Shown piece by piece: positions 1 to 16,952 of a stretch of DNA of 44,007 nucleotides. The notes beneath the pieces are model-generated. The model did not search any database, had not been told where the DNA came from, and was given only the letters and a program-made list of their open reading frames with translations. Position numbers and translations under genes: made by a program. Within the stretch, counting starts at the first letter, position 1; every line of letters starts with the position of its first letter. The stretch lies in the IMG/VR virus record IMGVR_UViG_2636415673_000006; one strand, written 5' to 3'. The DNA is from a virus (Duplodnaviria; Heunggongvirae; Uroviricota; Caudoviricetes).

Positions 1-525
1 TCACTAGATTCTGACGATTTCCAGAAGGGAGATTCAGCAGGCCAGCATCTGTAATCATTCAGATTTGCTGGCTTGCTGCTAAATATGGTTGCTAAGAAAA
101 ATAGCAGGCCAGTAATTTATTCAGATTACTGAATATAATAATTTTTCAGGAACGGTTATGCTGAAGGTAGTATGTTTAATCGACACAATTATTTGCTGAG
201 TCTAATATGAGGTGACATTTTTATGATCACTGACCAGCAAGACTGACCCGTATTGATTAGCCTGATTATTGGCAACTTATTGGGGTAGTCATTTTGACAT
301 CGAATGGGGGAGGTTTCCAGTTAAGTTCACGAATGCATGATGATTTGCGTTCACATATCGAAGTACTGGTTGACTATACTAAGGATTTTAAGATAACTCA
401 CTGATTGTAAGTGGGTTATTGCGAGGGGGATGATAAATGGTGTCCCCTGCAGACATCTACTTGAGGATGCAGGGGATTGATTGGAATGGTATTTTTGGTA
501 TGTGAAAAATATTTTACTCGCTATT

Positions 526-726
526 TTACCCATTGGCGCGGCTTAAGAGCTTATTTTTGAATTCACAATGGTCACGATATAACCATCTTGCTCGCCCGTG
601 GATAACTTTGGCTTTTGGCAGGTCGCCGGACTTAATCCGGTCGTAGATGAAGGTTTTACCGAAGCCAGTATCAGCCATGATGAATTTCAAATCAACCAGT
701 GAATCAGGTTGTAGTTCGTGTTGCAT
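526..726 (-). CDS. Excisionase-like / AlpA-family HTH DNA-binding protein (putative Xis)
   Basis: 66-aa ORF with HTH-like core (DLKFIMADTGFGKTFIYDRIKSGDLPKAKVIHGRARWLY) typical of AlpA/Xis-type excisionases; last gene of the leftward early operon; RBS GGAGA before the ATG. Confidence 0.55.
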   Translation of the reverse strand: MQHELQPDSLVDLKFIMADTGFGKTFIYDRIKSGDLPKAKVIHGRARWLYRDHCEFKNKLLSRANG

Positions 727-770
727 GAGTGCTATCTCCGAATAGGGAATCGAACCTGCAAATCAGGCAA

Positions 771-790
771 TAAAAAACCGCCATCAGGCG
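771..790 (-). terminator. Rho-independent terminator-like hairpin (leftward)
   Basis: Plus strand ccgcc-atca-ggcgg preceded by A6; on the minus strand this is a GC stem followed by a T-run. Confidence 0.35.
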
Positions 791-1008
791 GCTTGGTGTT
801 CTTTCAGTTCTTCAATTCGAATATTGGTTACGTCTGCATGTGCTATCTGCGCCCACAGCATCCAGTGGTCATAGCAGTCGTTGATGTTCTCTGCTTCGAT
901 AACTCTGTTGAATGGCTCTCCATTCCATTCACCAGTGACTCGGAAGTGCATTTATCATCTCCATAAAACAAAACCCGCCGTAGCGAGTTCAGATAAAAGA
1001 AATCCGCA

Positions 1009-1809
1009 TTAAGCGGCGTCGGTGAATTCAAATAAAAAACCGGCTTGCGCCGGCTCTCTCATCTTTCTGTCTACCCATGCTGATATCGATGGTGGGTGCA
1101 CCTTTTCAATAGCTGCGCGAAGTACAGATGTACGTGCCAGTTTGTCGGTAATCTCAGGAAATCGCTTCTCTGTCTTCGGTACGTTAACAGCAACATTAGT
1201 AGAATCCGCACTGGCGAACGGATACATACCAAGAACTCTCACGTCGAGCATTCGAAGACCATGAATTTTCACTTTCAAATTACGATTGATATAAAGCTCA
1301 GTGAAAACTTCATCCATTCTCTGTTCCCACCATTTAGAGCGTATGTGCCTGTGTGGGCCGCAGCATCCAATCGCCACCCATTCAAATTTGCCAGAAAGGC
1401 GTAAAAGACGATCAATTGATTCGTCGGTATGCCAGACCGGAACCGCTTTTGATTTTAGCCAATCAGGAACCAACTCAATCTGCTTGTCGTTTTCTGCCTC
1501 TGTCCCTTCGATAACGTCAGGTATAAGAAACCATTCAATTCTGCTGAACCACTTCCCAACAAAATCGTAGAATTTTGCTCGTCTCTTACTCCAGTCTACC
1601 GGAGTGCCTTTCTTTAATGCTTTCATCCAGTCGCTAAAAGCGCCGTTATCAAGGCGTATATCACAAGGGAACATGGCAATCTTTTTCATCTGCGCTGGTC
1701 TGGCAAATGAAACAAAAGCCCCACCATCACGGTAAAGGGCTTTAATCAGCATATCTGTAGGGGCATGCGCATCCCCCCATATTGGGCTGCCGTGAAAGTG
1801 GATGGTCAT
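1009..1809 (-). CDS. Conserved lambdoid early-left protein; candidate tRNA-guanine-transglycosylase-like (DpdA-like) DNA-modification enzyme
   Basis: 266-aa ORF. Motif RLDNGAFSDW resembles the TGT substrate-binding motif LTDSGGFQ, and the C-terminal half (FEWVAIG...HGLRML...FASADST) loosely parallels the TGT GGLAVGE...YLMGVG...MFDCV blocks. No PP-loop (SGGxDS), so not PAPS-reductase/DndC-like. The gene is confident; the function is tentative. Confidence 0.45.
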   Translation of the reverse strand: MTIHFHGSPIWGDAHAPTDMLIKALYRDGGAFVSFARPAQMKKIAMFPCDIRLDNGAFSDWMKALKKGTPVDWSKRRAKFYDFVGKWFSRIEWFLIPDVIEGTEAENDKQIELVPDWLKSKAVPVWHTDESIDRLLRLSGKFEWVAIGCCGPHRHIRSKWWEQRMDEVFTELYINRNLKVKIHGLRMLDVRVLGMYPFASADSTNVAVNVPKTEKRFPEITDKLARTSVLRAAIEKVHPPSISAWVDRKMREPAQAGFLFEFTDAA

Positions 1810-1867
1810 ATTATCCCCATATAAAAGAAATCCCCGCGAGTGCGAGGATAGTTACTTGTTCATATTA

Positions 1868-2167
1868 TTAATCGTCAATATATTTTGAGCATTGTGGGCA
1901 ATCATCAATCCCACAATACGATTCATATCCATCCTTTATTGCGTCGCGGGCTTCAGTAAGAGTATTGAATAAGTTGCAGCTATTATCTTTTTGATATAGG
2001 TAAGTTCCTAATTTATAAGCAGAAGAAGCATCATTTCCGCTGTCTAAAATTACATCGTTATGGATTCTGCACCTTGCAAGAACTCCTGATCCCATAAGGG
2101 TCTGCATAGCCCATTGCTCTTGATCTTCACACAAATCATGAATGCTCATTTCAACACCTCTCTTCAC
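1868..2167 (-). CDS. Hypothetical small Cys-rich protein (AT-rich moron-like gene)
   Basis: 99-aa ORF in a low-GC stretch; C-terminal CGIDDCPQC motif suggests metal binding. Confidence 0.45.
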   Translation of the reverse strand: MKRGVEMSIHDLCEDQEQWAMQTLMGSGVLARCRIHNDVILDSGNDASSAYKLGTYLYQKDNSCNLFNTLTEARDAIKDGYESYCGIDDCPQCSKYIDD

Positions 2168-2263
2168 GTTTCACACACGTTAAGATTAACAGTGTTTTTA
2201 CATGCTTTGGAAGATTTATTTTATAAAAACTCTTTTAATACAAATAGATATAATAGTTCACTA

Positions 2264-2920
2264 TTATAGCTCCTTTAATCGAGGCGGTTCTGGTAGAGGC
2301 ATCCAGTGGGTTACACCGCCAATTGGCTCATCGTCGTCGTACTCCAATGCGGCTATATAGAACCCGTCACGACGAGAATAAGAAATCCCTGACATTACAA
2401 TGCCATCCGAAACAACAATAATGTCACCCGTTTCTTCCGGCATTCGCTCACTACAGCTTATCCAACCATCCGGAATTACCGGAGAGTTGCCGCGTTCTTT
2501 AATGTGCAAGCGAGGCTCACCATCTTTTGGTTCAGGCCACTGGCGCTCCATGTTGATCTTCAATTTATCTTCCATAGCAGCGGTAATTTCAGCATCGCTG
2601 ATGCCAGCACGGCGCTGTGCATCCCACAACAGGAACTGCATATCAGCCCACTCGCTGAGATCGTCTGGTTCGGCTGCGGCTTCCAGAGCCTCTTTTGAGA
2701 GGTGTTTCAGTGGACCAATGGGGCCAACGCAGCCAAATGTGGAGTCAGACCATTTGGCATGCTCGTGGTGAATCTGTTCGCGTTCCAGTGAGGCGAAAGC
2801 GATTTTAAATGCTGTAAGCATGTGTGCTTGATCGTTGTCGAGTCCGAATGGCATTTCATCTCGTGCTGACTCAATACTGGTAATCGTATTTTGTAGCCAT
2901 TCTTTGGTAAAAGTGCTCAT
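2264..2920 (-). CDS. Lambdoid early protein with DUF551-like C-terminus (DUF550/DUF551 family)
   Basis: 218-aa ORF; C-terminal motif GVTHWMPLPEPP is characteristic of DUF551 proteins common in lambdoid prophages; stop overlaps the upstream gene start (coupling). Confidence 0.5.
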   Translation of the reverse strand: MSTFTKEWLQNTITSIESARDEMPFGLDNDQAHMLTAFKIAFASLEREQIHHEHAKWSDSTFGCVGPIGPLKHLSKEALEAAAEPDDLSEWADMQFLLWDAQRRAGISDAEITAAMEDKLKINMERQWPEPKDGEPRLHIKERGNSPVIPDGWISCSERMPEETGDIIVVSDGIVMSGISYSRRDGFYIAALEYDDDEPIGGVTHWMPLPEPPRLKEL

Positions 2921-3288
2921 CGTAAAATATCCTCTATACTGGTAAGTCCTTCATTATTTAGCCAGATCATGGCGTCATCCGGCAACTTGCTGTCTGGTTT
3001 GGCGTTTTTGAGAGAGGAACTCAGTCGCTTAATCCACATTGTCACCTCAGTAATGCGCCTGTCTTTGCCTTCCAGCTCAACACGCAGCTTCCCTACCGTT
3101 AGCGCAATATCCTCGTTCTCCTGGTCGCGGCGTTTGATGTATTGCTGGTTTCTTTCCCGTTCATCCAGCAGTTCCAGCACAATCGATGGTGTTACCAATT
3201 CATGGAAAAGGTCTGCGTCAAATCCCCAGTCGTCATGCATTGCCTGCTCTGCCGCTTCACGCAGTGCCTGAGAGTTAATTTCGCTCAC
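2917..3288 (-). CDS. Ead/Ea22-like early protein (coiled-coil)
   Basis: 123-aa acidic coiled-coil ORF in the ea22 position of lambdoid phages; overlapping start/stop with neighbours. Confidence 0.4.
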   Translation of the reverse strand: MSEINSQALREAAEQAMHDDWGFDADLFHELVTPSIVLELLDERERNQQYIKRRDQENEDIALTVGKLRVELEGKDRRITEVTMWIKRLSSSLKNAKPDSKLPDDAMIWLNNEGLTSIEDILR

Positions 3289-3506
3289 TTCGAACCTCTC
3301 TGTTTACTGATAAGCTCCAGATCTTCCTGGCAACTTGCACAAGTCCGACAACCCTGAACGGCCAGGCGTCTTCGTTCATCTATCGAATCGCCACACTCAC
3401 AAGAATGAGTGGCAGATATAGCCTGGTGGTTCAGACGACGCATTTTTATTGCTGTATTGCGCTGTAATTCTTCGATTTCTGATGCTGAATCAATGATGTC
3501 TGCCAT
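3285..3506 (-). CDS. TraR/DksA-family C4 zinc-finger protein
   Basis: 73-aa ORF with CECG...x17...CRTCASC four-cysteine zinc ribbon typical of phage TraR/DksA-like proteins. Confidence 0.7.
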   Translation of the reverse strand: MADIIDSASEIEELQRNTAIKMRRLNHQAISATHSCECGDSIDERRRLAVQGCRTCASCQEDLELISKQRGSK

Positions 3507-3559
3507 CTTCCATTAATCTCTGAATTGTTGGTTAATACGCTTGAGGGTGAATGCGAATA

Positions 3560-3582
3560 ATAAAAAAGGAGCCTGTAGCTCC
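3560..3582 (-). terminator. Rho-independent terminator (leftward) downstream of the DGQHR gene
   Basis: Plus strand A6-ggagc-ctgta-gctcc; on the minus strand a 5-bp GC stem followed by TTTTTTA. Confidence 0.45.
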
Positions 3583-3659
3583 ATGAAGATTTTGTTTTTC
3601 ATGCTCACCGTTCCTTAAAGACGCCGTACAGCATGCTGATATGAGACAATGTTGATTCA

Positions 3660-4724
3660 TTAAGTTGATTCCAGACTTCCTTTGGTAAAAGCTTGTATCA
3701 GTCTGTTTGCTGCTGCTTTCTGCGCTGCCACATTGGCAATAACAGATAGTTTTTCCTGGCTGGCTTTCGTGCAGATCCCCGCCCAGTTATCCATCAGAAA
3801 AAAATCCTCTCTTTCTGCAGAGCTGGTAGTTGCACATAGTTTTTCGATCATAGAAGTTATTTCTGCGATGGAATGATTAACCATCATCTGTTGAACCGCA
3901 AAACCGAAAGCGTTAATCATTACTCCATGGAACTGAATATAATCGCGCTTGTACGTAGCGTGGTGTACACCATGTCGGATTGAGTCAATCTGAGTTAGTG
4001 TAATCCATGCCTCCCAGACAGATTCTATATATCCCATTTCAAGTTGTTGATTGCCGTTCCTGGCGAACTTTGACGTTGCATCAGTGAGTGCCTTGAAACT
4101 CACCCACATATTACTTTTTAATGGCACTACGTTGTGTTCAAAATCGGTTATATCGGCAAATACAGTATGTTGGGTCAGGAAGGATATCATTCCCTGAGCA
4201 ATATCATCCCGGCCGTTATACGCCATATTGATGGTCGCTGATGGCTTAGAAACGTTGTTATTTATGTCCGAAAAGAACTGCTGCCGGGTTTTTAGCGGCA
4301 GATTCATTGTAAGCATCATGGGAACCATGAGCGTTGATGGGGAACTTCGGCAAAATATCTCAATGCCAGCTGCACGATGTTGACCATCAAAAAGTTTTAT
4401 TTCGGCGTCGAGGGGAATTCTGGCTATACCAACATTTGTGTTGCCAAACGGTACAAATTCTATATTCGAATCACAGTTACCTACGAGAGGGGGAATGATA
4501 AAAGGCTCATTTCTTGAGTCTGCGTTAGTGAGATAATTTAAAAATTTTCGTACTCGATTTGGATTAATTTCTCGCTGAGAGCGTTCCAGTGTATGGCCGT
4601 AATTATCTGAAGCGAGGAAACGAGCCAGCGATCTTCCTGGTATGGTAAGGAAGAGTGTAACAGTACCACCCTGTACACCTTGCGATGCCGGAAATTCGAA
4701 TGAATGATTACCAACCTGACTCAT
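3660..4724 (-). CDS. DGQHR-domain protein (DndB/DpdB-like, ParB-like fold)
   Basis: 354-aa ORF containing the exact DGQHR signature (KLFDGQHRAAGIE) about 120 residues from the N-terminus, as in DndB/DpdB family proteins. Confidence 0.75.
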   Translation of the reverse strand: MSQVGNHSFEFPASQGVQGGTVTLFLTIPGRSLARFLASDNYGHTLERSQREINPNRVRKFLNYLTNADSRNEPFIIPPLVGNCDSNIEFVPFGNTNVGIARIPLDAEIKLFDGQHRAAGIEIFCRSSPSTLMVPMMLTMNLPLKTRQQFFSDINNNVSKPSATINMAYNGRDDIAQGMISFLTQHTVFADITDFEHNVVPLKSNMWVSFKALTDATSKFARNGNQQLEMGYIESVWEAWITLTQIDSIRHGVHHATYKRDYIQFHGVMINAFGFAVQQMMVNHSIAEITSMIEKLCATTSSAEREDFFLMDNWAGICTKASQEKLSVIANVAAQKAAANRLIQAFTKGSLEST

Positions 4725-4885
4725 ATATCCTCCTGTTTATTATTTATCTTCTCAGCCAGCCCCTGTGCTTTCAGTGGATTTCTGATAACAGAAAGACCGG
4801 GAAATACCCAGCCTCGCTTTGTAATGGAGTAGACGAAAGTGATCGCGCCTACCCGGATATTATCGTGAGGATGCGTCATCGCCAT
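4721..4885 (-). CDS. Small hypothetical protein (54 aa) translationally coupled between exo and the DGQHR gene
   Basis: Hand-translated [57 protein letters not shown]; stop overlaps the DGQHR ATG as ATGA; start overlaps the exo 3' end. Below the 60-aa track cutoff. Confidence 0.3.
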
Positions 4886-5556
4886 TGCTCCCCAAATACA
4901 AAACCAATTTCAGCCAGTGCCTCGTCCATTTTTTCGATGAACTCCGGCACCATCTCGTCAAAACTCGCCATGTACTTTTCATCCCGCTCAACCACGACAT
5001 AATGCAGTCCTTCACGCTTCATACGCGGGTCATAGTTGGCAAAGTACCAGGCATCTTTTCGTGTCACCCACATGCTGTACTGCACCTGGGCCATGTAAGC
5101 CGACTTTATGGCCTCGAAACCACCGAGCCGGAACTTCATGAAATCCCGGGAGGTAAACGGGCATTTCAGCTCAAGGCCATTGCCGTCACTGCATAAACCA
5201 TCGGGAGAGCAGGCGGTGCGCATACTTTCGTCGCGATAGATGATCGGGGATTCGGTAACATTCACGCCGGAAGTGAATTCAAACAGAGTTCTGGCGTCGT
5301 TCTCGTACTGTTTTCCCCAGGCCAGCGCCTTAGCATTAACTTCCGGAGCCACACCGGTGCAAACCTCAGCCAGCAGGGTGTGGAAGTAGGACATTTTCAT
5401 GTCAGGCCACTTCTTTCCTGAGCGGGGCTTTGCTATCACGTTGTGAACTTCTGAAGCGGTGATGACGCCGAGCCGTAATTTGTGCCATGTATCATCCCCC
5501 TGTTCGACAGCTCTCACGTCGATCCCGGTACGCTGCACGATAATGTCCGGTGTCAT
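4876..5556 (-). CDS. exo: Lambda Exo (Red-alpha) 5'-3' exonuclease
   Basis: 226-aa ORF recognised as essentially identical to lambda Exo ([40 protein letters not shown]...). Confidence 0.95.
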
Positions 5557-6338
5557 GCTGCCACCTTCTGCTCAGTGGCTTTCTGTTTCAGGAATCCAAG
5601 AGCTTTCACTGCTTCGGCCTGTGTCAGTTCTGACGATGCGCGAATGTCGCGGCGAAATATCTGGGAACAGAGCGGCAATAAGTCGTCATCCCATGTTTTA
5701 TCCAGGGCGATCAGCAGAGTGTTAATCTCTTGCATGGTTTCATCGTTAACCGGAGTGATGTCGCGTTCTGGCTGACGTTCTGCAGTGTATGCAGTATTTT
5801 CGACAATGCGCTCGGCTTCATCCTTGTCATAGATACCAGCAAATCCGAAGGCCAGACGGGCACACTGAATCATGGCTTTATGCCGTAACATCCGTTTGGG
5901 ATGCGACTGCCACGGCCCCGTGATTTCTCTGCCTTCGCGAGTTTTGAATGGTTCGCGGCGGCATTCATCCATCCATTCGGTAACGCAGATCGGATGATTA
6001 CGGTCCTTGCGGTAAATCCGGCATGTACAGGATTCATTGTCCTGCTCAAAGTCCATGCCATCAAACTGCTGGTTTTCATTGATGATGCGGGACCAGCCAT
6101 CAACGCCCACCACCGGAACGATGCCGTTCTGCTTATCAGGGAAGGCGTAAATTTCTTTCGTCCACGGATTAAGGCCGTACTGGTTGGCGACGATCAACAA
6201 TGCGATGAACTGCGCATCGCTGGCATCACCTTTAAATGCCGTCTGGCGAAGAGTGGTGATCAGTTCCTGTGGGTCGACAGAATCCATGCCGACACGTTCA
6301 GCCAGCTTCCCTGCCAGCGTTGCGAGTGCTGTACTCAT
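5553..6338 (-). CDS. bet: Lambda Bet (Red-beta) single-strand annealing protein
   Basis: 261-aa ORF recognised as lambda Bet ([37 protein letters not shown]...); overlaps the exo start. Confidence 0.95.
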
Positions 6339-6343
6339 CCGTT

Positions 6344-6640
6344 TTATACCTCTGAATCAATATCAACCTGGTGGTGAGCAATGGTTTCAACCATGTACCG
6401 GATGTGTTCTGCCATGCGCTCCTGAAACTCAACATCGTCATCAAACGCACGGGTAATGGCTTTTTTGCTGGCCCCGTGGCGTTGCAAATGATCGATGCAT
6501 AGCGATTCAAACAGGTGCTGGGGCAGGCCTTTTTCCATGTCGTCTGCCAGTTCTGCCTCTTTCTCTTCACGGGCGATCTGCTGGTAGTGACGCGCCCAGC
6601 TCTGAGCCTCAAGACGATCCTGAATGTAATAAGCGTTCAT
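6344..6640 (-). CDS. gam: Lambda Gam (RecBCD inhibitor), GamS-length form
   Basis: 98-aa [24 protein letters not shown]... matches lambda Gam from its internal start; an in-frame stop lies upstream, so the long N-terminal form is not encoded. Confidence 0.9.
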
Positions 6641-6715
6641 GGCTGACCTCCTGAAAATGGCTGTGAAAATATCGCCCGCGAAATGCCAGGCTGATTAGGA
6701 AAACAGGAAAGGGGA

Positions 6716-7006
6716 TTAGTGATTCAGGCCGTTACCGCGTCCGTCGAGAAAAACTTCCACGAGCAAATCACGGGTATAAGTGCGCTCGATGCCGCGATGC
6801 AGATAAAGCCGTCCGCGTAAATTAGCTGATGCAGTCCAGGTACCATCTTTGTGTTTGACCAGCATTCCTGGCATGACCGCACCTCGATTAACGGTCTGCG
6901 TTCCATAATGTTGATGAACCATAAAAACTCCTGCCCGTAAGCTGGGCTGCTGAACATATAGAGACTTCTGCGCGTATTCAGGCGGTGGATGGCCGCCGGT
7001 TGTCAT
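6716..7006 (-). CDS. Early-left protein in the kil position (possible Kil-like host-division inhibitor)
   Basis: 96-aa ORF with RBS (gagg) before the ATG; first gene leftward of the putative OL/pL region. Function is by position only. Confidence 0.35.
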
Positions 7007-7195
7007 AACTAAGCCGCCTCGTTGAAGCGACTAAGGTATGAAATGTTGAGTTAATTTCAGCTGGTCACACCGACGTTCACGCGTCCGTTTCACCCCTCGC
7101 ACTCCCCGAAGCCTGCTGAAATTCAAACTGCGGATCTAAGCGGTCATCGCAACGGTGAATCAGGTAGTTGCCGTATCGTTGTGTTGTTGCGATGA

Positions 7196-7250
7196 ACTTA
7201 TTTAAAACTATAGTTGTTTTATCGTCAACAACAAAAGTTGTTTTATTGGC
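7196..7250. promoter_or_regulatory. Candidate OL operator cluster / pL region
   Basis: Clustered imperfect palindromes built on AACAAC/GTTGTT half-sites (aaaactatagttgtttt, caacaacaaaagttgtttt) that resemble the sites between cI and cro. Confidence 0.35.
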
Positions 7251-7373
7251 TGTTTTAGATATAACTGGTTGTATTTAGGATGGATTTATTTTGTGACTTG
7301 AATCGCATAGCGATAACTGAAGCGAGGTTATGGTGGTTTTTTTAACGGTGTGTGTGATGAGGGGAGGGCAAAA

Positions 7374-7402
7374 GAAAACCCGGCACGGTGACCGGGATTC
7401 TT
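7374..7402 (-). terminator. Rho-independent terminator downstream of the repressor gene
   Basis: Minus strand cccgg-tcaccgtg-ccggg followed by ttttctttt. Confidence 0.5.
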
Positions 7403-7517
7403 ACGCCGTTAGGTAAAGATATTATTGCGGTGGCTTAATATTACTACCTAGAGCAAAGATAGGAATTAGTTCTTTACTGAATGAGCACAATGCCCAGTTG
7501 ATAATTTTTAATTGGTA

Positions 7518-8207
7518 CTACCCATGCTTCCTATATGTCTGCGGCATGCTCCCAATAACCTTACCGAAGATGAACACCCGGTTCATCTCGTCTTTCTCGA
7601 TCGGGTCCCACGGTGAGTAGCTTTTGTTATCAGAGATGACCAGCAGCTTATCCTTCATCATTTGCAGGCGCTTTACATGGGCTGTGTCGTCGTACAGAAA
7701 CGCATAGATACCATCACCGTCGAAAGATTTAACTGTGATATCAACGAACAGCAGATCACCTGGTTCGATCGTTCCTGACATGCTGTCACCACGCACGTTA
7801 ATGATGCGGATATTTTCCGCCTTCCTACCATCGAACATGTGACGAGCATCGTCAAACGAGTACTCAACCGAGCGTAGAACTTCTACAAACTCACGGTTGA
7901 TGACTCCCGGCCCAGCACTGACTTCTATATCAAGAACGTCAATCTTGAAGTATTTGGAATGGCTGACAGTTGATTGTATTGGTTGCACTGTACTGTCTGA
8001 CATATTTCCAACGCCAGAAGATAACCATTCTGCGCGCACACCCAAAGCGTTCGCGATCTCCACGATTTTAGTTGTTTGATTAGCTTTCCCTGTTTCGATT
8101 TTCTGAATAGCAGCCTGGCTAACCCCGACCAAATCCCCAAGCGCCTTTTGTGTAAGGCCTCGCGCTAATCTGGCTTCTTTAAGTCTTTCTGAGAGTGTTG
8201 TTTTCAT
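7518..8207 (-). CDS. cI: CI-type prophage repressor (HTH_XRE + S24 LexA-like peptidase domain)
   Basis: N-terminal HTH (LSERLKEARLARGLTQKALGDLVGVSQAAIQKIETG) and C-terminal S24 motifs (GDSM...VKRL). Start placed at the internal Met (MKTTLSERL) at 8207; the track ORF extends to 8273. Confidence 0.85.
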   Translation of the reverse strand: MKTTLSERLKEARLARGLTQKALGDLVGVSQAAIQKIETGKANQTTKIVEIANALGVRAEWLSSGVGNMSDSTVQPIQSTVSHSKYFKIDVLDIEVSAGPGVINREFVEVLRSVEYSFDDARHMFDGRKAENIRIINVRGDSMSGTIEPGDLLFVDITVKSFDGDGIYAFLYDDTAHVKRLQMMKDKLLVISDNKSYSPWDPIEKDEMNRVFIFGKVIGSMPQTYRKHG

Positions 8208-8224
8208 AGTCCAAATGTACAACC

Positions 8225-8290
8225 AAGGTTTTATTCCATCAAACGAAAATGGTTGTTGACTAAAAACAACCATAGTTTTAATCTTGATTC
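8225..8290. promoter_or_regulatory. Candidate OR operators / divergent pRM-pR region
   Basis: Intergenic region between divergent cI and cro containing the palindrome atggttgtt-gactaaa-aacaaccat and a third half-site (acaaccaagg). Confidence 0.45.
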
Positions 8291-8311
8291 AAATTAACCA
8301 CGGAGGTTGTT

Positions 8312-8542
8312 ATGAACCCAGCTATCAAAACAGCGATCAATATCGTTGGTTCACAAAAGAAACTGGGCGCTGCTTGCGAAGTTTCACAGCAGGCCGTCTA
8401 TAAGTGGCTTCACAACAAAGCAAAGGTATCCCCTGAACATGTCGGCAGCATTGTTACGGCTACTGGTGGAGTAGTGAAGGCATACCAGATTCGCCCGGAT
8501 CTTCCGAAGTTGTTTCCACACACCGAAAAGAACGCAGCTTAA
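8312..8542 (+). CDS. cro: Cro-like HTH regulator (YdaS/Cro family)
   Basis: 76-aa ORF divergent from the repressor, RBS GGAGG, HTH-like core (GSQKKLGAACEVSQQAVYKWL). Confidence 0.7.
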   Translation: MNPAIKTAINIVGSQKKLGAACEVSQQAVYKWLHNKAKVSPEHVGSIVTATGGVVKAYQIRPDLPKLFPHTEKNAA

Positions 8543-8611: not shown

Positions 8612-9151
8612 ATGCAACCACTTACATACCAACAGACTAGCGGATTTAGCCCGACTGCGGTGATAAATCGTTCTCAAACAAAACAGGTGCCAGGCCACGA
8701 AAAAATCCGTGATGCCGTCCGCGCCTGGTCGGCTGTAGATAATCAGGATGTCGTTGCCACACTCATTGTGAATGAGTATCGGGAGCAGGGCGGCGGCACC
8801 ATCGATTTCCCTGATGATGTCAGCCGTGCACGCCAGAAGCTGTTCCGCTTCCTCGATAACAAATTCGATTCTGAAAAATACCAAAATAACGTGCGTGAAC
8901 TGACCCCGGCAATTCTGGCGGTACTACCGCTGGAATATCGCGGTTACCTGGTTGAGCAGGATAGCTTCATGGCTCGGCTGGCTGAAATGGAAAAGGAACT
9001 CAGTGAGGCAAAGCAGGCGGTCATTCTCAACGCACCACGCCACCAGAAACTGAAGGAAATTAGTGAAGGTATTGTGTCGATGTTTCGTGTGGACCCAGAT
9101 CTGGCTGGTCCATTGATGGCGATGGTTACTACCATGCTGGGGGCGATATGA
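8612..9151 (+). CDS. YdaT-like protein in the cII position (putative regulatory protein)
   Basis: 179-aa ORF after cro with RBS AGGAG; positional analogue of cII. Family assignment by recollection only. Confidence 0.4.
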   Translation: MQPLTYQQTSGFSPTAVINRSQTKQVPGHEKIRDAVRAWSAVDNQDVVATLIVNEYREQGGGTIDFPDDVSRARQKLFRFLDNKFDSEKYQNNVRELTPAILAVLPLEYRGYLVEQDSFMARLAEMEKELSEAKQAVILNAPRHQKLKEISEGIVSMFRVDPDLAGPLMAMVTTMLGAI

Positions 9152-9237
9152 CAGGTTCAGAAATGGCGAAAGCCGGTCTGCTGGAACAGAACCGACTTTC
9201 AGGTGCAAATCGTAACACACTCATTGCGGGAGGAATT

Positions 9238-10167
9238 ATGGCAAACACTGCTGAGATATTCAATTTTCCAGTGCCGGATGCGGCACAAAAGGAGCCGCGC
9301 GTGGCAGATCTCGATGATGGTTATACGCGCATTGCAAATGAGTTGCTGGAAGCTGTGATGCTGACCGGATTAACACAGCACCAGCTTCTGGTCTTTCTGG
9401 CTGTCATGCGCAAAACATATGGCTTTAATAAAAGACTGGATTGGGTGAGCAACGAGCAACTTTCCGAATTGACCGGGATATTGCCGCACAAGTGTTCTGC
9501 TGCAAAAAGCGTTCTGGTAAAGCGTGGGATTCTTATTCAGAGCGGGCGGAATATCGGCATTAATAATGTGGTCAGTGAATGGTCAACATTACCCGAATCA
9601 GGTAAGAAAAATAAAGTTTACCTGAAAGAGGTAAATTTACCTGAATCAGGTAAGAAAAGTTTACCCAAATCAGGTAAAGGCGTTTACCCGAATCAGGTAA
9701 ACACAAAAGACAAACTAACAAAAGACAATATAAAACCTTTTTCGTCCGAGAATTCTGGCGAATCCTCTGACCAGCCAGAAAACGATCTTCCTGTGGTGAA
9801 ACCGGATGCTGCAATTCAGAGCGGCAGCAAGTGGGGGACAGCAGAAGACCTGACCGCCGCAGAGTGGATGTTTGACATGGTGAAGACTATCGCACCATCA
9901 GCCAGAAAACCGAATTTTGCTGGGTGGGCTAACGATATCCGCCTGATGCGTGAACGTGACGGACGTAACCACCGCGACATGTGCGTGCTGTTCCGCTGGG
10001 CATGCCAGGACAACTTCTGGTCCGGTAACGTGCTGAGCCCGGCCAAACTCCGCGATAAGTGGACCCAACTCGAAATCAACCGTAACAAGCAACAGGCAGG
10101 CGTGATAGCCAGCAAACCAAAACTCGACCTGACGAACACTGACTGGATTTACGGGGTGGAGCTATGA
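9238..10167 (+). CDS. O: Replication initiator O (lambda O family)
   Basis: N-terminus (ANTAEIFNF...VADLDDGYTRIANELLEA...KTYGFNK) parallels lambda O; contains the ori iterons internally. Start set at ATG 9238 with RBS gggagg; the track ORF begins at 9148. Confidence 0.85.
   Translation: MANTAEIFNFPVPDAAQKEPRVADLDDGYTRIANELLEAVMLTGLTQHQLLVFLAVMRKTYGFNKRLDWVSNEQLSELTGILPHKCSAAKSVLVKRGILIQSGRNIGINNVVSEWSTLPESGKKNKVYLKEVNLPESGKKSLPKSGKGVYPNQVNTKDKLTKDNIKPFSSENSGESSDQPENDLPVVKPDAAIQSGSKWGTAEDLTAAEWMFDMVKTIAPSARKPNFAGWANDIRLMRERDGRNHRDMCVLFRWACQDNFWSGNVLSPAKLRDKWTQLEINRNKQQAGVIASKPKLDLTNTDWIYGVEL
9589..9700. repeat. Origin iterons (ori-lambda type) inside the O gene
   Basis: Five ~19-bp direct repeats of consensus tttaccc(g/a)aatcaggtaa at about 23-bp spacing, followed by an A-rich tract (acacaaaagacaaactaacaaaagacaatataaaa). 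Confidence 0.8.
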
Positions 10168-10865
10168 AAAACATCGCCGCACAGATGGTTAACTTTGACC
10201 GTGAGCAGATGCGTCGGATCGCCAACAACATGCCGGAACAGTACGACGAAAAGCCGCAGGTACAACAGGTAGCGCAGATCATCAATGGTGTGTTCAGCCA
10301 GTTACTAGCAACTTTCCCGGCGAGCCTGGCTAACCGGGACCAGAACGAACTGAACGAAATCCGCCGCCAGTGGGTGCTGGCTTTCCGGGAAAACGGGATC
10401 ACCACAATGGAACAGGTTAACGCAGGAATGCGCGTAGCCCGTCGGCAGAATCGACCATTCCTGCCATCACCCGGGCAGTTTGTCGCCTGGTGCCGGGAAG
10501 AAGCATCCATTACCGCCGGGCTGCCAAACGCCAGCGAGCTGGTTGATATGGTTTACGAGTATTGCCGGAAGCGTGGCCTGTATCCGGACGCAGAGTCTTA
10601 TCCATGGAAATCGAACGCGCACTACTGGCTGGTTACCAACCTGTACCAGAACATGCGAGCCAATGCGCTGACTGACGCGGAATTACGGCGCAAGGCTGCC
10701 GATGAACTGACCTGTATGACAGCGCGAATTAACCGTGGTGAGGCTATACCTGAACCAGTAAAACAACTTCCTGTCATGGGCGGTAGACCTCTAAATCGTG
10801 CACAGGCTCTGGCGAAGATCGCAGAAATCAAAGCTAAGTTTGGGCTTAAAGGAGCAAGTGTATGA
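10164..10865 (+). CDS. P: Replication protein P (DnaB helicase loader)
   Basis: 233-aa ORF recognised as near-identical to lambda P (MKNIAAQMVNFDREQMRRIANNMPEQYDEKPQVQQ...). Confidence 0.95.
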   Translation: MKNIAAQMVNFDREQMRRIANNMPEQYDEKPQVQQVAQIINGVFSQLLATFPASLANRDQNELNEIRRQWVLAFRENGITTMEQVNAGMRVARRQNRPFLPSPGQFVAWCREEASITAGLPNASELVDMVYEYCRKRGLYPDAESYPWKSNAHYWLVTNLYQNMRANALTDAELRRKAADELTCMTARINRGEAIPEPVKQLPVMGGRPLNRAQALAKIAEIKAKFGLKGASV

Positions 10866-11164
10866 CGGGCAAAGAGGCAATTATTCATTACCTGGGGACT
10901 CATAAGAACTTCTGTGCGCAGGACGTTGCCGCGGTAACAGGCGCAACCGTAACCAGCATAAATCAGGCTGCGGCTAAAATGGCGCGGGCAGGAATCCTGG
11001 TCGTTGATGGTAAGGTCTGGCGAACGGTGTATTACCGGTTCGCTACCAGAGAAGAACGGGAAGGAAAGGTGAGCACGAATCTGATTTTTAAGGAGTGTCG
11101 CCAGAGTGCCGCGATGAAACGGGTATTGAGGGTATATAAAAGAACATCAATGGGTACACAATGA
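10862..11164 (+). CDS. ren: Ren exclusion protein
   Basis: MTGKEAIIHYLGTH...VTSINQAAAKMARAG matches lambda/DLP12 Ren; the C-terminus diverges where cargo follows. Confidence 0.85.
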   Translation: MTGKEAIIHYLGTHKNFCAQDVAAVTGATVTSINQAAAKMARAGILVVDGKVWRTVYYRFATREEREGKVSTNLIFKECRQSAAMKRVLRVYKRTSMGTQ

Positions 11165-11231
11165 TGAAACAGGTGAGTTGAGTTCAAACTGTAGTACAAT
11201 TCTCTCCAGTTTGAACAGGAAAGAATATGCT

Positions 11232-11564
11232 ATGAACCCTTATATTTATCTTGGTGGTGCAATACTTGCAGAGGTCATTGGTACAACCTTAATGAAGTTT
11301 TCAGAAGGTTTTACACGGTTATGGCCATCTGTTGGTACAATTATTTGTTATTGTGCATCATTCTGGTTATTAGCTCAGACGCTGGCTTATATTCCTACAG
11401 GGATTGCTTATGCTATCTGGTCAGGAGTCGGTATTGTCCTGATTAGCTTACTGTCATGGGGACTTTTCGGCCAACGGCTGGACCTGCCAGCCATTATAGG
11501 CATGATGTTGATTTGTGCCGGTGTGTTGGTTATTAATTTATTGTCACGAAGCACACCACATTAA
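11232..11564 (+). CDS. emrE: SMR-family multidrug efflux transporter EmrE
   Basis: 110-aa four-TM protein MNPYIYLGGAILAEVIGTTLMKFSEGFTRLW... recognised as E. coli EmrE. Start set at the internal ATG; the track ORF begins at 11178. Confidence 0.9.
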   Translation: MNPYIYLGGAILAEVIGTTLMKFSEGFTRLWPSVGTIICYCASFWLLAQTLAYIPTGIAYAIWSGVGIVLISLLSWGLFGQRLDLPAIIGMMLICAGVLVINLLSRSTPH

Positions 11565-11594
11565 AATAATTTGTTTCTAAACGACTAAAATATG

Positions 11595-11635
11595 GAGGCT
11601 CTTATATTTATATGAGCCTCGTTTTATGCTTTTTG
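11595..11635 (+). terminator. Rho-independent terminator after emrE
   Basis: gaggctc-ttatatttatat-gagcctc followed by gttttatgcttttt. Confidence 0.45.
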
Positions 11636-11818
11636 TTAATGTCTTTATTTTTTATGTATTCTTTTGTGCTTTCAAGATTATGGCGTAAGAAAATTGCAAT
11701 ACGATTATTGTTGTATATTCAAGATAATGTGACCTTAATTGTCTTTTTAAATAAAAATTAAACAAAAATTATATCCCACCACTAAGGTTTATAAAAGCAT
11801 ACGTTAGCAGGTGTCACC

Positions 11819-13345
11819 ATGAAAAAAGCCATAGCATATATGCGATTTTCATCACCAGGTCAGATATCTGGTGACTCATTAAACCGACAGAGAAGACTTA
11901 TTGCTGAATGGTTAAAGGTAAATAGTGATTATTATCTTGATACCATAACATATGAAGATTTAGGATTAAGTGCATTCAAAGGAAAGCATGCACAATCAGG
12001 AGCTTTTTCGGAATTTTTAGATGCTATAGAGCATGGTTATATATTGCCAGGAACTACATTGTTAGTTGAAAGTCTGGACAGACTTTCAAGAGAAAAAGTC
12101 GGTGAAGCGATTGAACGTCTGAAATTGATTTTGAATCACGGTATTGATGTTATAACTCTTTGCGACAATACAGTCTATAATATTGACTCTTTGAATGAGC
12201 CATATTCATTAATAAAAGCCATACTTATAGCACAAAGGGCAAATGAAGAAAGCGAGATAAAGTCAAGTCGGGTTAAATTATCATGGAAGAAAAAACGGCA
12301 GGATGCACTGGAATCAGGTACGATTATGACGGCGTCTTGTCCGAGATGGCTCTCATTGGATGACAAAAGAACGGCTTTTGTTCCAGACCCCGACAGGGTG
12401 AAAACTATTGAGCTAATTTTTAAACTCAGGATGGAAAGGCGCTCATTGAATGCAATAGCCAAGTATTTAAATGATCATGCTGTAAAGAATTTCTCAGGAA
12501 AAGAAAGTGCATGGGGACCTTCTGTAATTGAAAAATTATTAGCGAATAAAGCTCTGATAGGTATATGCGTACCTTCATATCGTGCAAGAGGGAAAGGGAT
12601 AAGTGAAATCGCTGGCTATTATCCCAGAGTCATATCAGATGATTTGTTTTACGCTGTACAGGAAATTCGGTTGGCACCTTTTGGTATTAGCAATAGTAGC
12701 AAGAATCCTATGCTAATAAATCTACTTCGAACAGTTATGAAGTGTGAGGCTTGTGGTAATACCATGATTGTTCATGCGGTATCTGGAAGTTTGCATGGCT
12801 ATTATGTTTGTCCGATGAGAAGATTACATCGATGTGACAGGCCATCAATAAAAAGAGATTTGGTTGATTATAATATCATTAATGAATTGCTTTTTAATTG
12901 TAGCAAAATTCAACCAGTTGAAAACAAGAAAGATGCTAATGAAACTTTAGAGTTAAAAATTATTGAGCTTCAGATGAAAATTAATAATTTAATTGCTGCA
13001 TTATCTGTTGCGCCTGAAGTTACCGCTATAGCAGAAAAAATCAGAGTATTAGATAAGGAATTACGAAGGGCTTCTGTATCATTAAAAACTTTGAAGAGTA
13101 AAGCGGTGAGCTCACTTGGTGATTTTCATGCTATTGACTTAACCAGTAAAAATGGGCGAGAGCTATGTCGTACACTTGCCTATAAAACATTCGAAAAAAT
13201 CATAATCAATACAGATAATAAAACCTGTGATATCTATTTTATGAATGGCATTGTTTTTAAACACTATCCTTTAATGAAAACAATATCCGCCCAGCAGGCG
13301 ATAAGTACTCTCAAATATATGGTTGATGGTGAGGTTTATTTTTGA
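11819..13345 (+). CDS. ybcK: Large serine recombinase (resolvase/invertase N-domain + recombinase domain + zinc ribbon), YbcK-like
   Basis: 508-aa ORF; N-terminal serine-recombinase motif (AIAYMRFSSPGQ...SLDRLSRE) and C-terminal Cys cluster (CEACGNTM...YYVCPMRRLHRC); AT-rich gene. Confidence 0.8.
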   Translation: MKKAIAYMRFSSPGQISGDSLNRQRRLIAEWLKVNSDYYLDTITYEDLGLSAFKGKHAQSGAFSEFLDAIEHGYILPGTTLLVESLDRLSREKVGEAIERLKLILNHGIDVITLCDNTVYNIDSLNEPYSLIKAILIAQRANEESEIKSSRVKLSWKKKRQDALESGTIMTASCPRWLSLDDKRTAFVPDPDRVKTIELIFKLRMERRSLNAIAKYLNDHAVKNFSGKESAWGPSVIEKLLANKALIGICVPSYRARGKGISEIAGYYPRVISDDLFYAVQEIRLAPFGISNSSKNPMLINLLRTVMKCEACGNTMIVHAVSGSLHGYYVCPMRRLHRCDRPSIKRDLVDYNIINELLFNCSKIQPVENKKDANETLELKIIELQMKINNLIAALSVAPEVTAIAEKIRVLDKELRRASVSLKTLKSKAVSSLGDFHAIDLTSKNGRELCRTLAYKTFEKIIINTDNKTCDIYFMNGIVFKHYPLMKTISAQQAISTLKYMVDGEVYF

Positions 13346-13456
13346 GTAATAATCACTTTTTCAACCGTGCTATAGTAAGAAAGTTAGGTAAGTACAATAA
13401 AATTATCTATCCTGAACGAAGCGTCCTGAGCTATGATTTTACTATAGGGACTGCCA

Positions 13457-13780
13457 ATGGATGCTGGCGTTCTCGTTCTAGCAGTTCAACAATCCCCAAT
13501 CACAAAACAATTCACTGATAACGAACTTTGCACACTCGCCTGGTTATGGCGAGCAGGGAATGTGATGTTAATTGCCTACCAGAACGTTACTCATCTTCTT
13601 CAGGATGCGGAGCATGGTGAAGCTGGTCACTTCACTTCCATCGAGCAAGAATATCCCCAGATACTCAACAGAGCGCGAGCAATCCTCGTCCGAGAAACGG
13701 CACATGTAAAACTTCAGCCGTGGCAGGATGATAAGTGGAGTCGAGTATTGCCGCATTTACCTCAGAATCTGTTTCAATAA
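13457..13780 (+). CDS. Hypothetical protein
   Basis: 107-aa ORF in the nin-region cargo; followed by a 10-bp perfect inverted repeat (cttccgtcat/atgacggaag) at 13799-13826. Confidence 0.4.
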   Translation: MDAGVLVLAVQQSPITKQFTDNELCTLAWLWRAGNVMLIAYQNVTHLLQDAEHGEAGHFTSIEQEYPQILNRARAILVRETAHVKLQPWQDDKWSRVLPHLPQNLFQ

Positions 13781-13954
13781 AGGCGCTAGTTAGTAAGGCT
13801 TCCGTCATTCTGCGATGACGGAAGTGCGGGCTGCGTACGGGAGAGCAATTGCATGAATAATATAAATATTCCGCTCACTCCATATAGCGATTTCTGATAC
13901 AAACTTATCTATTGTGGTAAAATTATAGAAACAAACTTATAGCGTACTAACCAT

Positions 13955-14737
13955 ATGGACAATATTAATAAACACGGGCTCTCAAGAAGAATACCTGAGA
14001 CAATAAAACGTCAGATAAGGCAAAGGTGCGGCTTTGGCTGTGTAATTTGTGGATTTGGATTTTATGATTATGAGCATTTTAAACCTGACTTCGTTGATGC
14101 CAAAGTACATGATCCGAATGGAATGACACTTCTTTGCTCCCAATGCAATCAAAAAAGAGCTCGTGGTAGACTTTCAGCACAGACAGTGGAAATAGCTGAC
14201 AGAAATCCCAAGTGCTTACAGGCTGGTTTTGCAAATGAAATGTTTGATTTTCATAATGAGCCTATAACAGTAAAATTTGCAGGAGTGACGTTTCATAACT
14301 GTCAAAATTTGATTGTAGTCAATGAACAACCCATTCTTTCTGTGAAACCTTCACCCATACCACATGGACCGATGCTTTTATCAGGAATTTTCTGTAATTC
14401 TATTGGTAAGGAGACTTTACTGATAGATGAAAATGAATGGAAAGCTAAATCAGACAATTGGGATGTGGAGTGTACCGGCCCGCGTATAACAATACGACGT
14501 GGGCCAGGAGAGTTTGCCCTCGTTCTAAAAATGGAACCTCCAACAGGATTGATTGTTGAGCGTCTTGATATGTTGTATGAAGGGGTCAGGATGAAAGGAG
14601 ATAAAGATCTGCTGGAAGTTTCGATTAATGGAGGTCCCTTGCACAGATGGCAATCATGCTCAATGTCAAATTGCCATACAGGGCTTGCGATTCAGGGCGG
14701 TATTAGAGCTGCTAATGATCCTTTGTATTGCGCCTAA
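13955..14737 (+). CDS. HNH-nuclease-domain protein with uncharacterised C-terminal domain
   Basis: 260-aa ORF; N-terminal HNH-like zinc-finger block (CGFGCVICG...YDYEH...NGMTLLCSQCNQKRARG); about 180 aa of unrecognised sequence follows. Confidence 0.55.
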   Translation: MDNINKHGLSRRIPETIKRQIRQRCGFGCVICGFGFYDYEHFKPDFVDAKVHDPNGMTLLCSQCNQKRARGRLSAQTVEIADRNPKCLQAGFANEMFDFHNEPITVKFAGVTFHNCQNLIVVNEQPILSVKPSPIPHGPMLLSGIFCNSIGKETLLIDENEWKAKSDNWDVECTGPRITIRRGPGEFALVLKMEPPTGLIVERLDMLYEGVRMKGDKDLLEVSINGGPLHRWQSCSMSNCHTGLAIQGGIRAANDPLYCA

Positions 14738-14929
14738 ATCCACTAAATTGATTTTCAACAATCAACTTGCCATAATTAAGTCACCGGAGTTTGAACTCCT
14801 CCGGTGACTTCTGCGCTAAACGGGGACGTTTATGCGCACATACAATCCAACCTCTCTTCTCCATTCTCAGATGCAGAAATGCACCTGCGATATTTTGCAT
14901 CCAGCGTTTGATCTCTGCGGAGGTGAAGC

Positions 14930-15385
14930 GTGAACCTCCCACAAGATGGTATCAAATTGCATCGCGGTAACTTCACCGCTATCGGTCGGCAGATCCAGCC
15001 TTATCTGGAGGACGGCAAATGCTTTCGCATGGTGCTTAAACCGTGGCGCGAGAGACGCAGTCTTTCCCAGAATGCACTCAGCCACATGTGGTACAGCGAA
15101 ATCAGTGAATACCTCATCAGCAAGGGTAAAACGTTCGCCACTCCAGCTTGGGTAAAAGATGCTCTCAAACACACATATCTCGGTTATGAAACCAAAGACC
15201 TGGTTGATGTCGTAACCGGTGATATCACCACTATCCAGTCGTTACGCCATACCTCCGATCTTGATACCGGAGAGATGTATGTCTTCCTGTGTAAGGTTGA
15301 AGCCTGGGCGGTGAATATTGGCTGCCACCTGACTATTCCGCAGAGCTGCGAGTTCCAGCTGCTCCGCGACAAGCAGGAGGCGTAA
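14930..15385 (+). CDS. ninB: NinB/Orf-family recombination protein (YbcN-like)
   Basis: 151-aa ORF with the NinB-type motif [17 protein letters not shown]; stop overlaps the ninE start (TAATG). Confidence 0.65.
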
Positions 15386-15555
15386 TGGCTACACCGCTTA
15401 TTCGTGTCATGAACGGACACATCTACAGAGTACCAAATCGTCGTAAGCGTAAACCTGAGCTGAAGCCATCCGAAATACCAACACTGCTCGGATATACCGC
15501 CAGCTTGGTTGATAAAAAATGGTTGCGACTGGCAGCAAGGAGGAGTCATGGCTGA
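15385..15555 (+). CDS. ninE: NinE-like small basic protein
   Basis: Hand-translated 56-aa [59 protein letters not shown] in the conserved ninB-ninE-ybcO-rusA arrangement. Confidence 0.6.
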   Translation: MATPLIRVMNGHIYRVPNRRKRKPELKPSEIPTLLGYTASLVDKKWLRLAARRSHG

Positions 15556-15838
15556 TTTGAGAAAAGCAGCGCGTGGTCGGGAATGCCAGGTAAGAATCCC
15601 TGGCGTATGTAATGGCAATTCTGAAACGTCTGTACTGGCACATATCCGGCTGGCTGGATTGTGCGGTACCGGTATCAAACCGCCAGACCTGATTGCCACC
15701 ATTGCATGTTCTGCCTGCCACGACGAAATCGACCGCCGCACACATTTTGTCGATGCTGCATATGCAAAAGAATGCGCGCTGGAAGGTATGGCGAGAACAC
15801 AGGTTATCTGGCTGAAAGAGGGGGTTATTAAGGCGTGA
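15548..15838 (+). CDS. ybcO: YbcO-like protein (DUF1364, putative nuclease)
   Basis: 96-aa Cys-rich ORF from [23 protein letters not shown]...; the track ORF starts upstream at 15509. Confidence 0.7.
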
Positions 15839-16197
15839 ATACCTACAGTATCACATTACCCTGGCCTCCGAGCAATAATCGCTATTACCGCCATAATCGC
15901 GGGCGCACGCACGTCAGTGCAGAGGGGCAGGCATACCGCGATAACGTCGCCCGAATCATTAAAAACGCAATGCTGGATATCGGCCTGGCTATGCCTGTGA
16001 AAATCCGCATTGAGTGCCACATGCCGGATTGCCGTAGCCGTGACCTGGATAATCTGCAAAAAGCCGCTTTTGACGCACTCACTAAAGCAGGTTTCTGGCT
16101 GGATGATGCTCAGGTCGTTGATTACCGCGTTGTGAAGATGCCTGTTACCAAAGGTGGGAGGCTGGAACTGACCATCACCGAAATGGGGAATGAATGA
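15835..16197 (+). CDS. rusA: Holliday-junction resolvase RusA
   Basis: 120-aa [27 protein letters not shown]... recognised as RusA. Confidence 0.9.
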
Positions 16198-16334
16198 TGT
16201 TTGAGTTTAATATGGCAGAACTTCTTCGCCACCGCTGGGGGCGTCTGCGCTTATATCGTTTCCCCGGCTCTGTTTTGACCGATTACCGAATACTGAAGAA
16301 TTACGCCAAAACACTGACAGGAGCAGGAGTATGA
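16194..16334 (+). CDS. ylcG: YlcG-like small protein
   Basis: Hand-translated 46-aa [49 protein letters not shown] overlapping the rusA stop. Confidence 0.5.
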
Positions 16335-16419
16335 AGTCAGAGATAACAATCAACTAATACTGTTTTGTTGATTTTTGCTTGTAATTGGCGTTCTGGTCTG
16401 AGTTTTGTGGAGTAAGTTG

Positions 16420-16925: not shown

Positions 16926-16952
16926 TAATAAGTATTATTTCGGGTAGGGATT

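Follow-up and report, generated by a model that had tools for sequence, protein, structure and literature searches.

A putative singleton DpdA and a DndB-like DGQHR protein as probably independent accessory genes in the early-left region of an Escherichia coli lambdoid prophage

The window analysed here is the whole of IMG/VR virus record IMGVR_UViG_2636415673_000006, a stretch of 44,007 nucleotides. The genes in question are two of its open reading frames, one encoding a DpdA-like protein of 266 residues and the other a DGQHR-domain protein of 354 residues. Window positions 500-5600 were found to be 100% identical to a prophage in two complete Escherichia coli genomes, NZ_CP104371 and NZ_CM137002, and the whole window (1-44007) corresponds to positions 1366163-1410169 of NZ_CP104371. 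Both genes of this E. coli lambdoid prophage lie on the minus strand of the early-left region that runs from exo to xis. A preliminary description of this DNA had placed the two proteins on the same leftward strand between exo and xis, and their open reading frames, starts and ribosome-binding sites were confirmed (listed below). It had also interpreted the pair as a DpdA/DpdB module for DNA modification. Fold, conserved residues and homology support the DpdA half of that proposal, whereas models, motif and linkage argue against the DpdB half. We consider it probable (about 0.7) that the locus holds two independent accessory genes in a mosaic, non-essential exo-to-xis part of the lambdoid early-left operon, and no two-component module.

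1009..1809, minus strand: 266-aa DpdA-like protein, with an ATG start and the ribosome-binding site GGGGA
1636..1653, minus strand: LDNGAF motif of the DpdA-like protein (residues 53-58), with Asp54 as predicted general acid/base; aligns to LDSGAF of phage 9g DpdA
1252..1269, minus strand: KIHGLR motif of the DpdA-like protein (residues 181-186), with His183; aligns to KVHGFG of 9g DpdA
1198..1212, minus strand: SADST motif of the DpdA-like protein (residues 200-204), with Asp202 as predicted nucleophile; aligns to SCDSS of 9g DpdA
3660..4724, minus strand: 354-aa DGQHR-domain, DndB-like protein, with an ATG start and the ribosome-binding site AGGAGG
4374..4388, minus strand: DGQHR motif of the 354-aa protein (residues 113-117); no variation from D113 to R117 among 35 family members

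The 266-aa protein matched PHROG 887, annotated as 'queuine tRNA-ribosyltransferase', at 4.8e-101. Its AlphaFold (AF2) model, built with 41 homologues (pLDDT 90.9, pTM 0.87), is a beta/alpha barrel with the (beta/alpha)8 TIM-barrel fold of TGT-like enzymes. Alignment of the family profile with phage 9g DpdA using hhalign (probability 94%, E 1.5e-7, 23% identity over 151 aligned columns) placed LDNGAFS opposite LDSGAFS, KIHG opposite KVHG and SADST opposite SCDSS. The first of these contains the DxGxF motif reported in the preliminary description, namely LDNGAF at residues 53-58. Among 41 family members D54, N55, A57, H183, D202 and S203 were invariant, with G56 and F58 conserved at 90% or more. 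The roles predicted for Asp54 and Asp202 were assigned by analogy with the catalytic Asp pair of Salmonella Montevideo DpdA (D95/D256), and a conserved His in the KxHG motif distinguishes DpdA1 from DpdA2 (Hutinet et al. 2019). The earlier assignment of the protein as DpdA/TGT-like had been made to depend on a TIM-barrel fold and catalytic Asp residues; both are present, and the DpdA call therefore stands. The PHROG match, the barrel model, the alignment to 9g DpdA and the preQ0-transporter genes found beside relatives (see below) support identification of the protein as a phage 'singleton' DpdA, a predicted TGT-like DNA guanine transglycosylase.

No match at E <= 0.1 was obtained to the NCBIfam model of bacterial DpdA, NF041059. 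The cut-off of this model is 200 bits and the validated phage 9g DpdA itself reaches only 13.9 bits, so the missing match rules out membership of the bacterial subfamily but not a phage DpdA. The likeness to 9g DpdA, a DpdA1 enzyme that experimentally inserts preQ0/G+, comprises profile homology, the three motifs, the conserved His and (for 9g) independence of DpdB. The 9g enzyme is longer, at 317 residues, and phage 9g encodes FolE, QueD, QueE and Gat-QueC beside dpdA, whereas the window prophage encodes none of these.

The 266-aa protein was 97% identical (98% at the DNA level) to gp29 of phage HK106, YP_007151699. This accession appears in Supplementary Data 1 of Hutinet et al. 2019 among 76 phages with DpdA and without G+ or preQ0 biosynthesis proteins; through its 97%-identical HK106 homologue, the DpdA of the window was thus already catalogued in 2019 and is not new. 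In HK106 dpdA occupies the same place as in the window, beside a lambdap35-like open reading frame and xis. The two proteins belong to the same family and represent nearly the same allele, and only the neighbouring mosaic genes differ. The singleton DpdAs of HK106 and phage 7-11 (group 3 of Hutinet 2019) resemble the window protein in their near full-length identity, in belonging to PHROG 887 and in the lack of phage preQ0 synthesis genes. The nearest relative with analysed DNA is the DpdA of Salmonella phage 7-11 (56% identity), in whose DNA dADG was measured at about 0.02% of G; in Orion, another singleton-DpdA phage, no modification was detected (Hutinet 2019). The negative result with Orion is attributable to its host, which lacks preQ0.

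Neither que (preQ0 synthesis) genes nor a YhhQ transporter were found in the window annotation. The base must therefore be supplied by the host, as Hutinet 2019 proposed for the singleton group, and the E. coli host makes preQ0. Among 80 IMG/VR relatives, 21 carry a gene of the Vut_1/YhhQ type (the preQ0 transporter family) that ends exactly at the dpdA start (loci L116-L125, L129-L137, L139 and L156; for example L134:9531-10753), and some of these are 76-87% identical to the 266-aa protein. QueD or VUT neighbours of the DpdA-like gene are also present in phage records. Additionally, a relative from metagenome/Logan data, P0006 (460 aa, 75% identical), possesses a C-terminal fusion to Dam (PF05869) at residues 283-452. 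Judged by its domains, P0006 is a predicted two-modification fusion enzyme, combining a DpdA-like protein with a DNA N6-adenine methyltransferase, and the fusion points to DNA as the substrate of the DpdA-like part. The dpdA-like gene was present in 82 of 5426 complete E. coli genomes (~1.5%), strain W included, and this frequency offers an easy system in which to learn how a singleton DpdA uses host preQ0.

The 354-aa protein matched Pfam DndB PF14072 (3.8e-46; 158.2 bits against a cut-off of 29.1), the TIGR03187 DGQHR domain (1.5e-55; 188.8 bits against 58.85) and the PADLOC DndB model (4.3e-37). These matches, like that of the 266-aa protein to PHROG 887, lie well outside what chance would produce. 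DndB was the only assignment that PADLOC, which includes a DpdA model, returned for the pair of proteins. On the DndB equivalog TIGR03233 the protein scored 106.9 bits, against a cut-off of 328 and 462 bits for E. coli DndB, and its identity to genuine E. coli DndB was 23% over 292 residues; it is therefore a DndB-like paralogue and not DndB. With DndB, the regulator and ATPase of dndBCDE, it shares PF14072, the PADLOC match, the DGQHR motif and a similar size, some 290 of ~355 residues being aligned. It differs in the low identity (23%), in the score on the equivalog (107 bits vs 328), in having no dndCDE nearby and in being phage-borne within an early-left operon. No dnd genes were annotated across the prophage or in the related loci inspected, and hence there is no dndCDE linkage. 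The NTPase-type (nucleoside triphosphatase) motifs of the family were invariant in the 35 members, and the results suggest a putative ParB-fold NTPase-type N-terminal domain followed by a helical C-terminal domain.

The DpdB model NF041060 gave no match to the 354-aa protein at E <= 0.1, while genuine E. coli DndB obtained 26.7 bits; this comparison is with the NCBIfam model and not a direct pairwise or profile alignment with a DpdB sequence. Furthermore, the DpdB motif is DGQQR, whereas that of the window family is DGQHR. Relative to the bacterial Dpd system (Salmonella Montevideo; PDB 7UI4), the window proteins miss both NF041059 and NF041060, their genes are non-adjacent and no dpdC-K genes are annotated. 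A helper is also not needed by phage 9g DpdA, which on its own introduced dPreQ0 into plasmids in E. coli MG1655, a strain without DpdB. Identification of the 354-aa protein as DpdB is thus not supported by any testable feature, whether model, DGQQR motif or adjacency and co-occurrence, and neither is the preliminary assignment of a DpdB-like partner. With the DpdB half unsupported and the DpdA half catalogued in 2019, the novelty claimed for a phage carrying a DpdA/DpdB pair does not hold.

The DGQHR gene was found in 284 of the 5426 complete E. coli genomes, always with at least 99% identity and beside DUF1317; identity falls to about 73% and about 65% in the next relatives. Both genes occurred in one locus in six genomes (by query coverage), that is, in 6 of the 82 dpdA-bearing and 6 of the 284 DGQHR-bearing genomes, and these six loci represent two arrangements with different intervening genes. 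One further genome holds both genes ~700 kb apart. Random assortment over the 5426 genomes would yield about four genomes with both. A similar picture was obtained from viral records. The dpdA-like gene was present in 2 of 80 IMG/VR DGQHR loci, 39 of which reach far enough downstream to show it; conversely, a DGQHR/DndB-like open reading frame was present in 2 of 80 IMG/VR dpdA-like loci, 59 of which reach far enough upstream. Both comparisons found their positives on one and the same pair of contigs. Among GenBank phage records, the DGQHR protein was present in 44 and the DpdA-like protein in 105, with no common accession among the matches listed. HK106 possesses dpdA without the DGQHR gene, Salmonella phage SPN1S has the DGQHR gene without dpdA, and many prophages show the order DGQHR-traR-torI and no dpdA. 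PS14A.1, one of the 83-kb Vibrio phages with a distant DGQHR homologue, has no dpdA-like gene within 20 kb on each side of that homologue, a span of 41 kb in a genome of 84.6 kb. The two genes assort independently, and the proposed module looks like a chance neighbourhood of two accessory genes.

Within the window the dpdA-like and DGQHR genes are separated by four genes and 1850 bp. The other features of the region are as follows.

526-726, minus strand: TorI/Xis-like gene (torI/xis), the downstream flank of the region
784-951, minus strand: 55-aa open reading frame
1034..1059, minus strand: terminator-like hairpin at the 3' end of the dpdA-like gene, an 11-bp stem followed by a T run (consensus scan only)
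1830..1849, minus strand: terminator-like hairpin directly upstream of the dpdA-like start (consensus scan only)
1868..2167, minus strand: Ea8.5-family Cys-rich protein with 6 Cys (Pfam Lambda_ea8_5, 2.6e-15)
2264..2920, minus strand: dATP/dGTP pyrophosphohydrolase and DUF551 fusion (Pfam PF04447, 1.5e-41; PF04448, 7.9e-15)
2917..3288, minus strand: truncated Ead/Ea22-like protein (Pfam Ead_Ea22, 1.4e-21, residues 2-79 only)
3285..3506, minus strand: TraR/DksA zinc-finger protein (Pfam zf-dskA_traR, 1.8e-6), an intervening gene outside any module
3568..3582, minus strand: terminator-like hairpin between the DGQHR gene and traR (consensus scan only)
4721..4885, minus strand: DUF1317 small protein (Pfam DUF1317, 4.2e-30), overlapping the exo stop and the DGQHR start
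4876-5556, minus strand: exo, the upstream flank of the region
5553-6338, minus strand: bet
6344-6640, minus strand: gam

The Pfam matches agree with the TraR-like, Ea22-like, DUF551 and Cys-rich genes that had been described as intervening. The Ea22-like open reading frame (2917-3288) is labelled an incomplete pseudogene in RefSeq, and its family match covers the N-terminal part only; it marks a mosaic junction separating the dpdA-like from the DGQHR gene and probably arose as a recombination scar. Hairpins at 1830-1849 and 1034-1059 bracket the dpdA-like gene and a third, at 3568-3582, follows the DGQHR gene; although consensus matches only, they are consistent with separate cassettes. Over window positions 300-8400 terminator-like hairpins were enriched (22 vs 7.9 +/- 3.2 in shuffles), mostly on the minus strand and between small early-left genes, while promoter-like sites were depleted (6 vs 13.5 in shuffles).

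The DGQHR family corresponds to PHROG 7901 and is found mostly in temperate phages of Enterobacterales. The 80 viral DGQHR loci carry DUF1317 and recombination genes upstream and a variable gene downstream. DUF1317 lies upstream of the DGQHR gene in 43 of the 80 (tblastn) and also in Salmonella phage SPN1S. It was rejected as a specific DGQHR partner, however, being annotated in lambda-type phages without DGQHR as well, and it therefore looks like a conserved operon neighbour or a recombination boundary. The E. coli allele is followed by traR, and in one genome (NZ_CP148275) an IS1 insertion splits the DGQHR gene.

A different downstream neighbour characterises the diverged loci (63-74% identity), in 40 of 53 of which a same-strand DNA methyltransferase begins within about 500 nt downstream of the DGQHR gene (IMG/VR loci L034-L072, L076 and L084, for example L045:10001-12133; SPN1S, L002:6073-7658). 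Fourteen of the 40 methyltransferases directly adjoin the DGQHR gene, often with overlapping stop and start codons. The remainder come after a single open reading frame of 154-179 residues, of which the 179-aa form has helix-turn-helix (HTH)-type Pfam matches, all with E between 2e-7 and 5e-3, and the 154-aa form none. The methyltransferases are of four kinds. Pfam matches confirmed Dam (PF05869) and MT-A70 (PF05063); a canonical Dam-type enzyme and an N6/N4-type one bearing a DPPY motif were recognised by sequence only. Overall, methyltransferase matches occurred in 49 of 80 DGQHR loci vs 10 of 80 dpdA-like loci. Among the 27 loci with the E. coli allele (at least 99% identity), 25 had no methyltransferase match at all and none had one downstream of the DGQHR gene.

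These neighbourhoods suggest that the natural partner of the DGQHR family is a methyltransferase, although the association may be positional, reflecting an accessory-gene hot spot. Fusions of ParB-fold domains with methyltransferases are frequent in prophages (PNAS 2025, PMC12704722). The likeness to those fusions lies in a ParB-superfamily NTPase-type domain coupled to methyltransferases in temperate phages; the DGQHR relatives differ in that the genes are separate and the domain is of the DGQHR/DndB type, and the window allele has no adjacent methyltransferase. This pattern, rather than a pairing with DpdA, is the lead worth pursuing. A family so tightly coupled to methyltransferases in many Enterobacterales prophages provides a concrete lead on the part played by ParB-fold NTPases in DNA modification.

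For the proposed pair of independent genes the following mechanism can be envisaged. By analogy with phage 9g DpdA, the singleton DpdA would flip guanine out of double-stranded DNA; Asp202 would attack C1' as nucleophile and Asp54 would serve as general acid/base, such that guanine is exchanged for preQ0. The preQ0, or a derivative of it, would be supplied by the FolE/QueD/QueE/QueC pathway of E. coli, and the reaction would proceed without a DpdB helper. The likely outcome would be sparse, sequence-selective 7-deazaguanine marks on replicating phage DNA, which would blunt some restriction enzymes. The DGQHR protein would be an orphaned DndB-like ParB-fold NTPase/DNA-binding protein, the methyltransferase being absent from the E. 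coli allele. In the diverged relatives its gene would head a cassette of DGQHR gene, HTH-protein gene (where present) and adenine methyltransferase gene.

Several other explanations were weighed against this one. The original module could be upheld if the DGQHR protein acted towards the phage DpdA as a DpdB-like ATPase that makes preQ0 insertion possible or increases it. In favour of this, the two genes share a strand in the exo-xis interval, DpdB and DndB both fall in the ParB-like DGQ(H/Q)R NTPase group, bacterial DpdA requires the ATPase of DpdB, and the NTPase-type motifs of the DGQHR family are invariant. This proposal is nonetheless very improbable, given that the protein has no DpdB equivalog match and carries DGQHR instead of DGQQR, that the genes stand four genes and 1.85 kb apart and seldom share a locus (6/82 and 6/284 E. 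coli genomes; 2/80 viral loci both ways), that 9g DpdA acts alone in E. coli and that the usual DGQHR neighbour is a methyltransferase. A genuine pairing would give a phage DpdA a DpdB-type helper for the first time and would change the view of phage 7-deazaguanine modification. A broader role is that of a general, exchangeable accessory or regulator of base-modifying enzymes, a ParB-fold NTPase that would load on DNA or control expression; its partners would be adenine methyltransferases in the majority of relatives, and DpdA might be another wherever both happen to occur together. The downstream methyltransferases (40 of 53 diverged loci), their excess in DGQHR over dpdA-like loci (49/80 vs 10/80), the common ParB-fold-methyltransferase fusions of prophages (PMC12704722) and the precedent of DndB as an ATP-modulated regulator of a DNA-modification operon all favour such a role. 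It is unlikely all the same, for the absence of a methyltransferase match from 25 of 27 E. coli-allele loci implies an allele independent of an adjacent partner, methyltransferases also occur in this region of prophages without DGQHR, and the association may be that of a positional hot spot. That an exchangeable ParB-fold NTPase of this sort could boost 7-deazaguanine insertion by DpdA in this very prophage seems quite unlikely; it would amount to a phage analogue of the DpdA-DpdB relationship, reached via a DndB-like instead of a DpdB protein.

We give similarly little credence to a role for the DGQHR protein in phage-host or phage-phage conflict, either interfering with or mimicking the phosphorothioate Dnd/Ssp systems or acting as an exclusion factor related to the DGQQR NTPases DndI, SspE and GmrSD. 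Its full-length DndB-like architecture would suit such a function, dndBCDE-dptFGH occurs in E. coli strains, DGQQR/ParB-fold NTPases serve as effectors in DndI, SspE and BrxU, and the presence of one allele (99% identity or more) in 284 E. coli genomes suggests recent spread. However, identity to E. coli DndB is only 23%, no nuclease domain was detected, the lytic early-left operon position argues against an exclusion gene expressed in the lysogen, and literature searches on phage DGQHR proteins found no report. The last alternative concerns the 266-aa protein, which might have diverged so as no longer to modify DNA, being inactive, acting on tRNA or performing guanine exchange only. Such divergence would accord with unmodified Orion DNA, with the level of about 0.02% of G in phage 7-11, with the authors' own remark on possible divergence (Hutinet 2019) and with the lack of Pfam or NCBIfam matches. 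We judge it unlikely, as every family member retains both catalytic Asp residues and the His, a preQ0-transporter gene is tightly coupled in relatives, the Dam fusion points to a DNA substrate, and a host lacking preQ0 explains the Orion result.

Some points weigh against the favoured reading, in which a functional singleton DpdA and an unrelated DGQHR protein share the operon by chance. The 266-aa protein matched no Pfam, NCBIfam or PADLOC DpdA/TGT model, and a Foldseek search of its model against PDB returned generic TIM barrels only, among which DpdA was not separable. PDB sequence searches with both proteins and a DpdA-family profile gave nothing meaningful. Singleton DpdAs are the least characterised DpdA group, and may have diverged in function, as Hutinet 2019 allows. 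DpdB and DndB share a ParB-like NTPase fold, such that the function of DpdB might in principle be taken over by a DndB-like protein, and the two genes, being on the same strand and probably in one transcript, could interact functionally in this particular prophage. Finally, no integrase is annotated anywhere in the prophage, which may therefore be defective; a defective element would limit any test on 'virion DNA'. Apart from the supplementary listing of Hutinet 2019, literature searches on phage DGQHR/DndB-like proteins, and on DpdA together with HK106 or lambdoid phages, revealed no work on these two genes in the lambdoid group.

Elsewhere in the prophage, TorI/Xis lies at one end and gtrA/gtrB-like genes beside ybhB-bioA at the other, and the tail-fibre gene stfP and a tail fibre assembly gene carry 'partial' annotations. 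The replication/nin region (window ~9000-17000; positions 29374-37559 of L089, the locus extracted from NZ_CP104371) contains DLP12-type genes including emrE (an SMR efflux pump), ybcK (annotated as a serine recombinase), ybcN (annotated as a 'DNA base-flipping protein') and rusA, indicating heavy mosaicism with the cryptic prophage DLP12.

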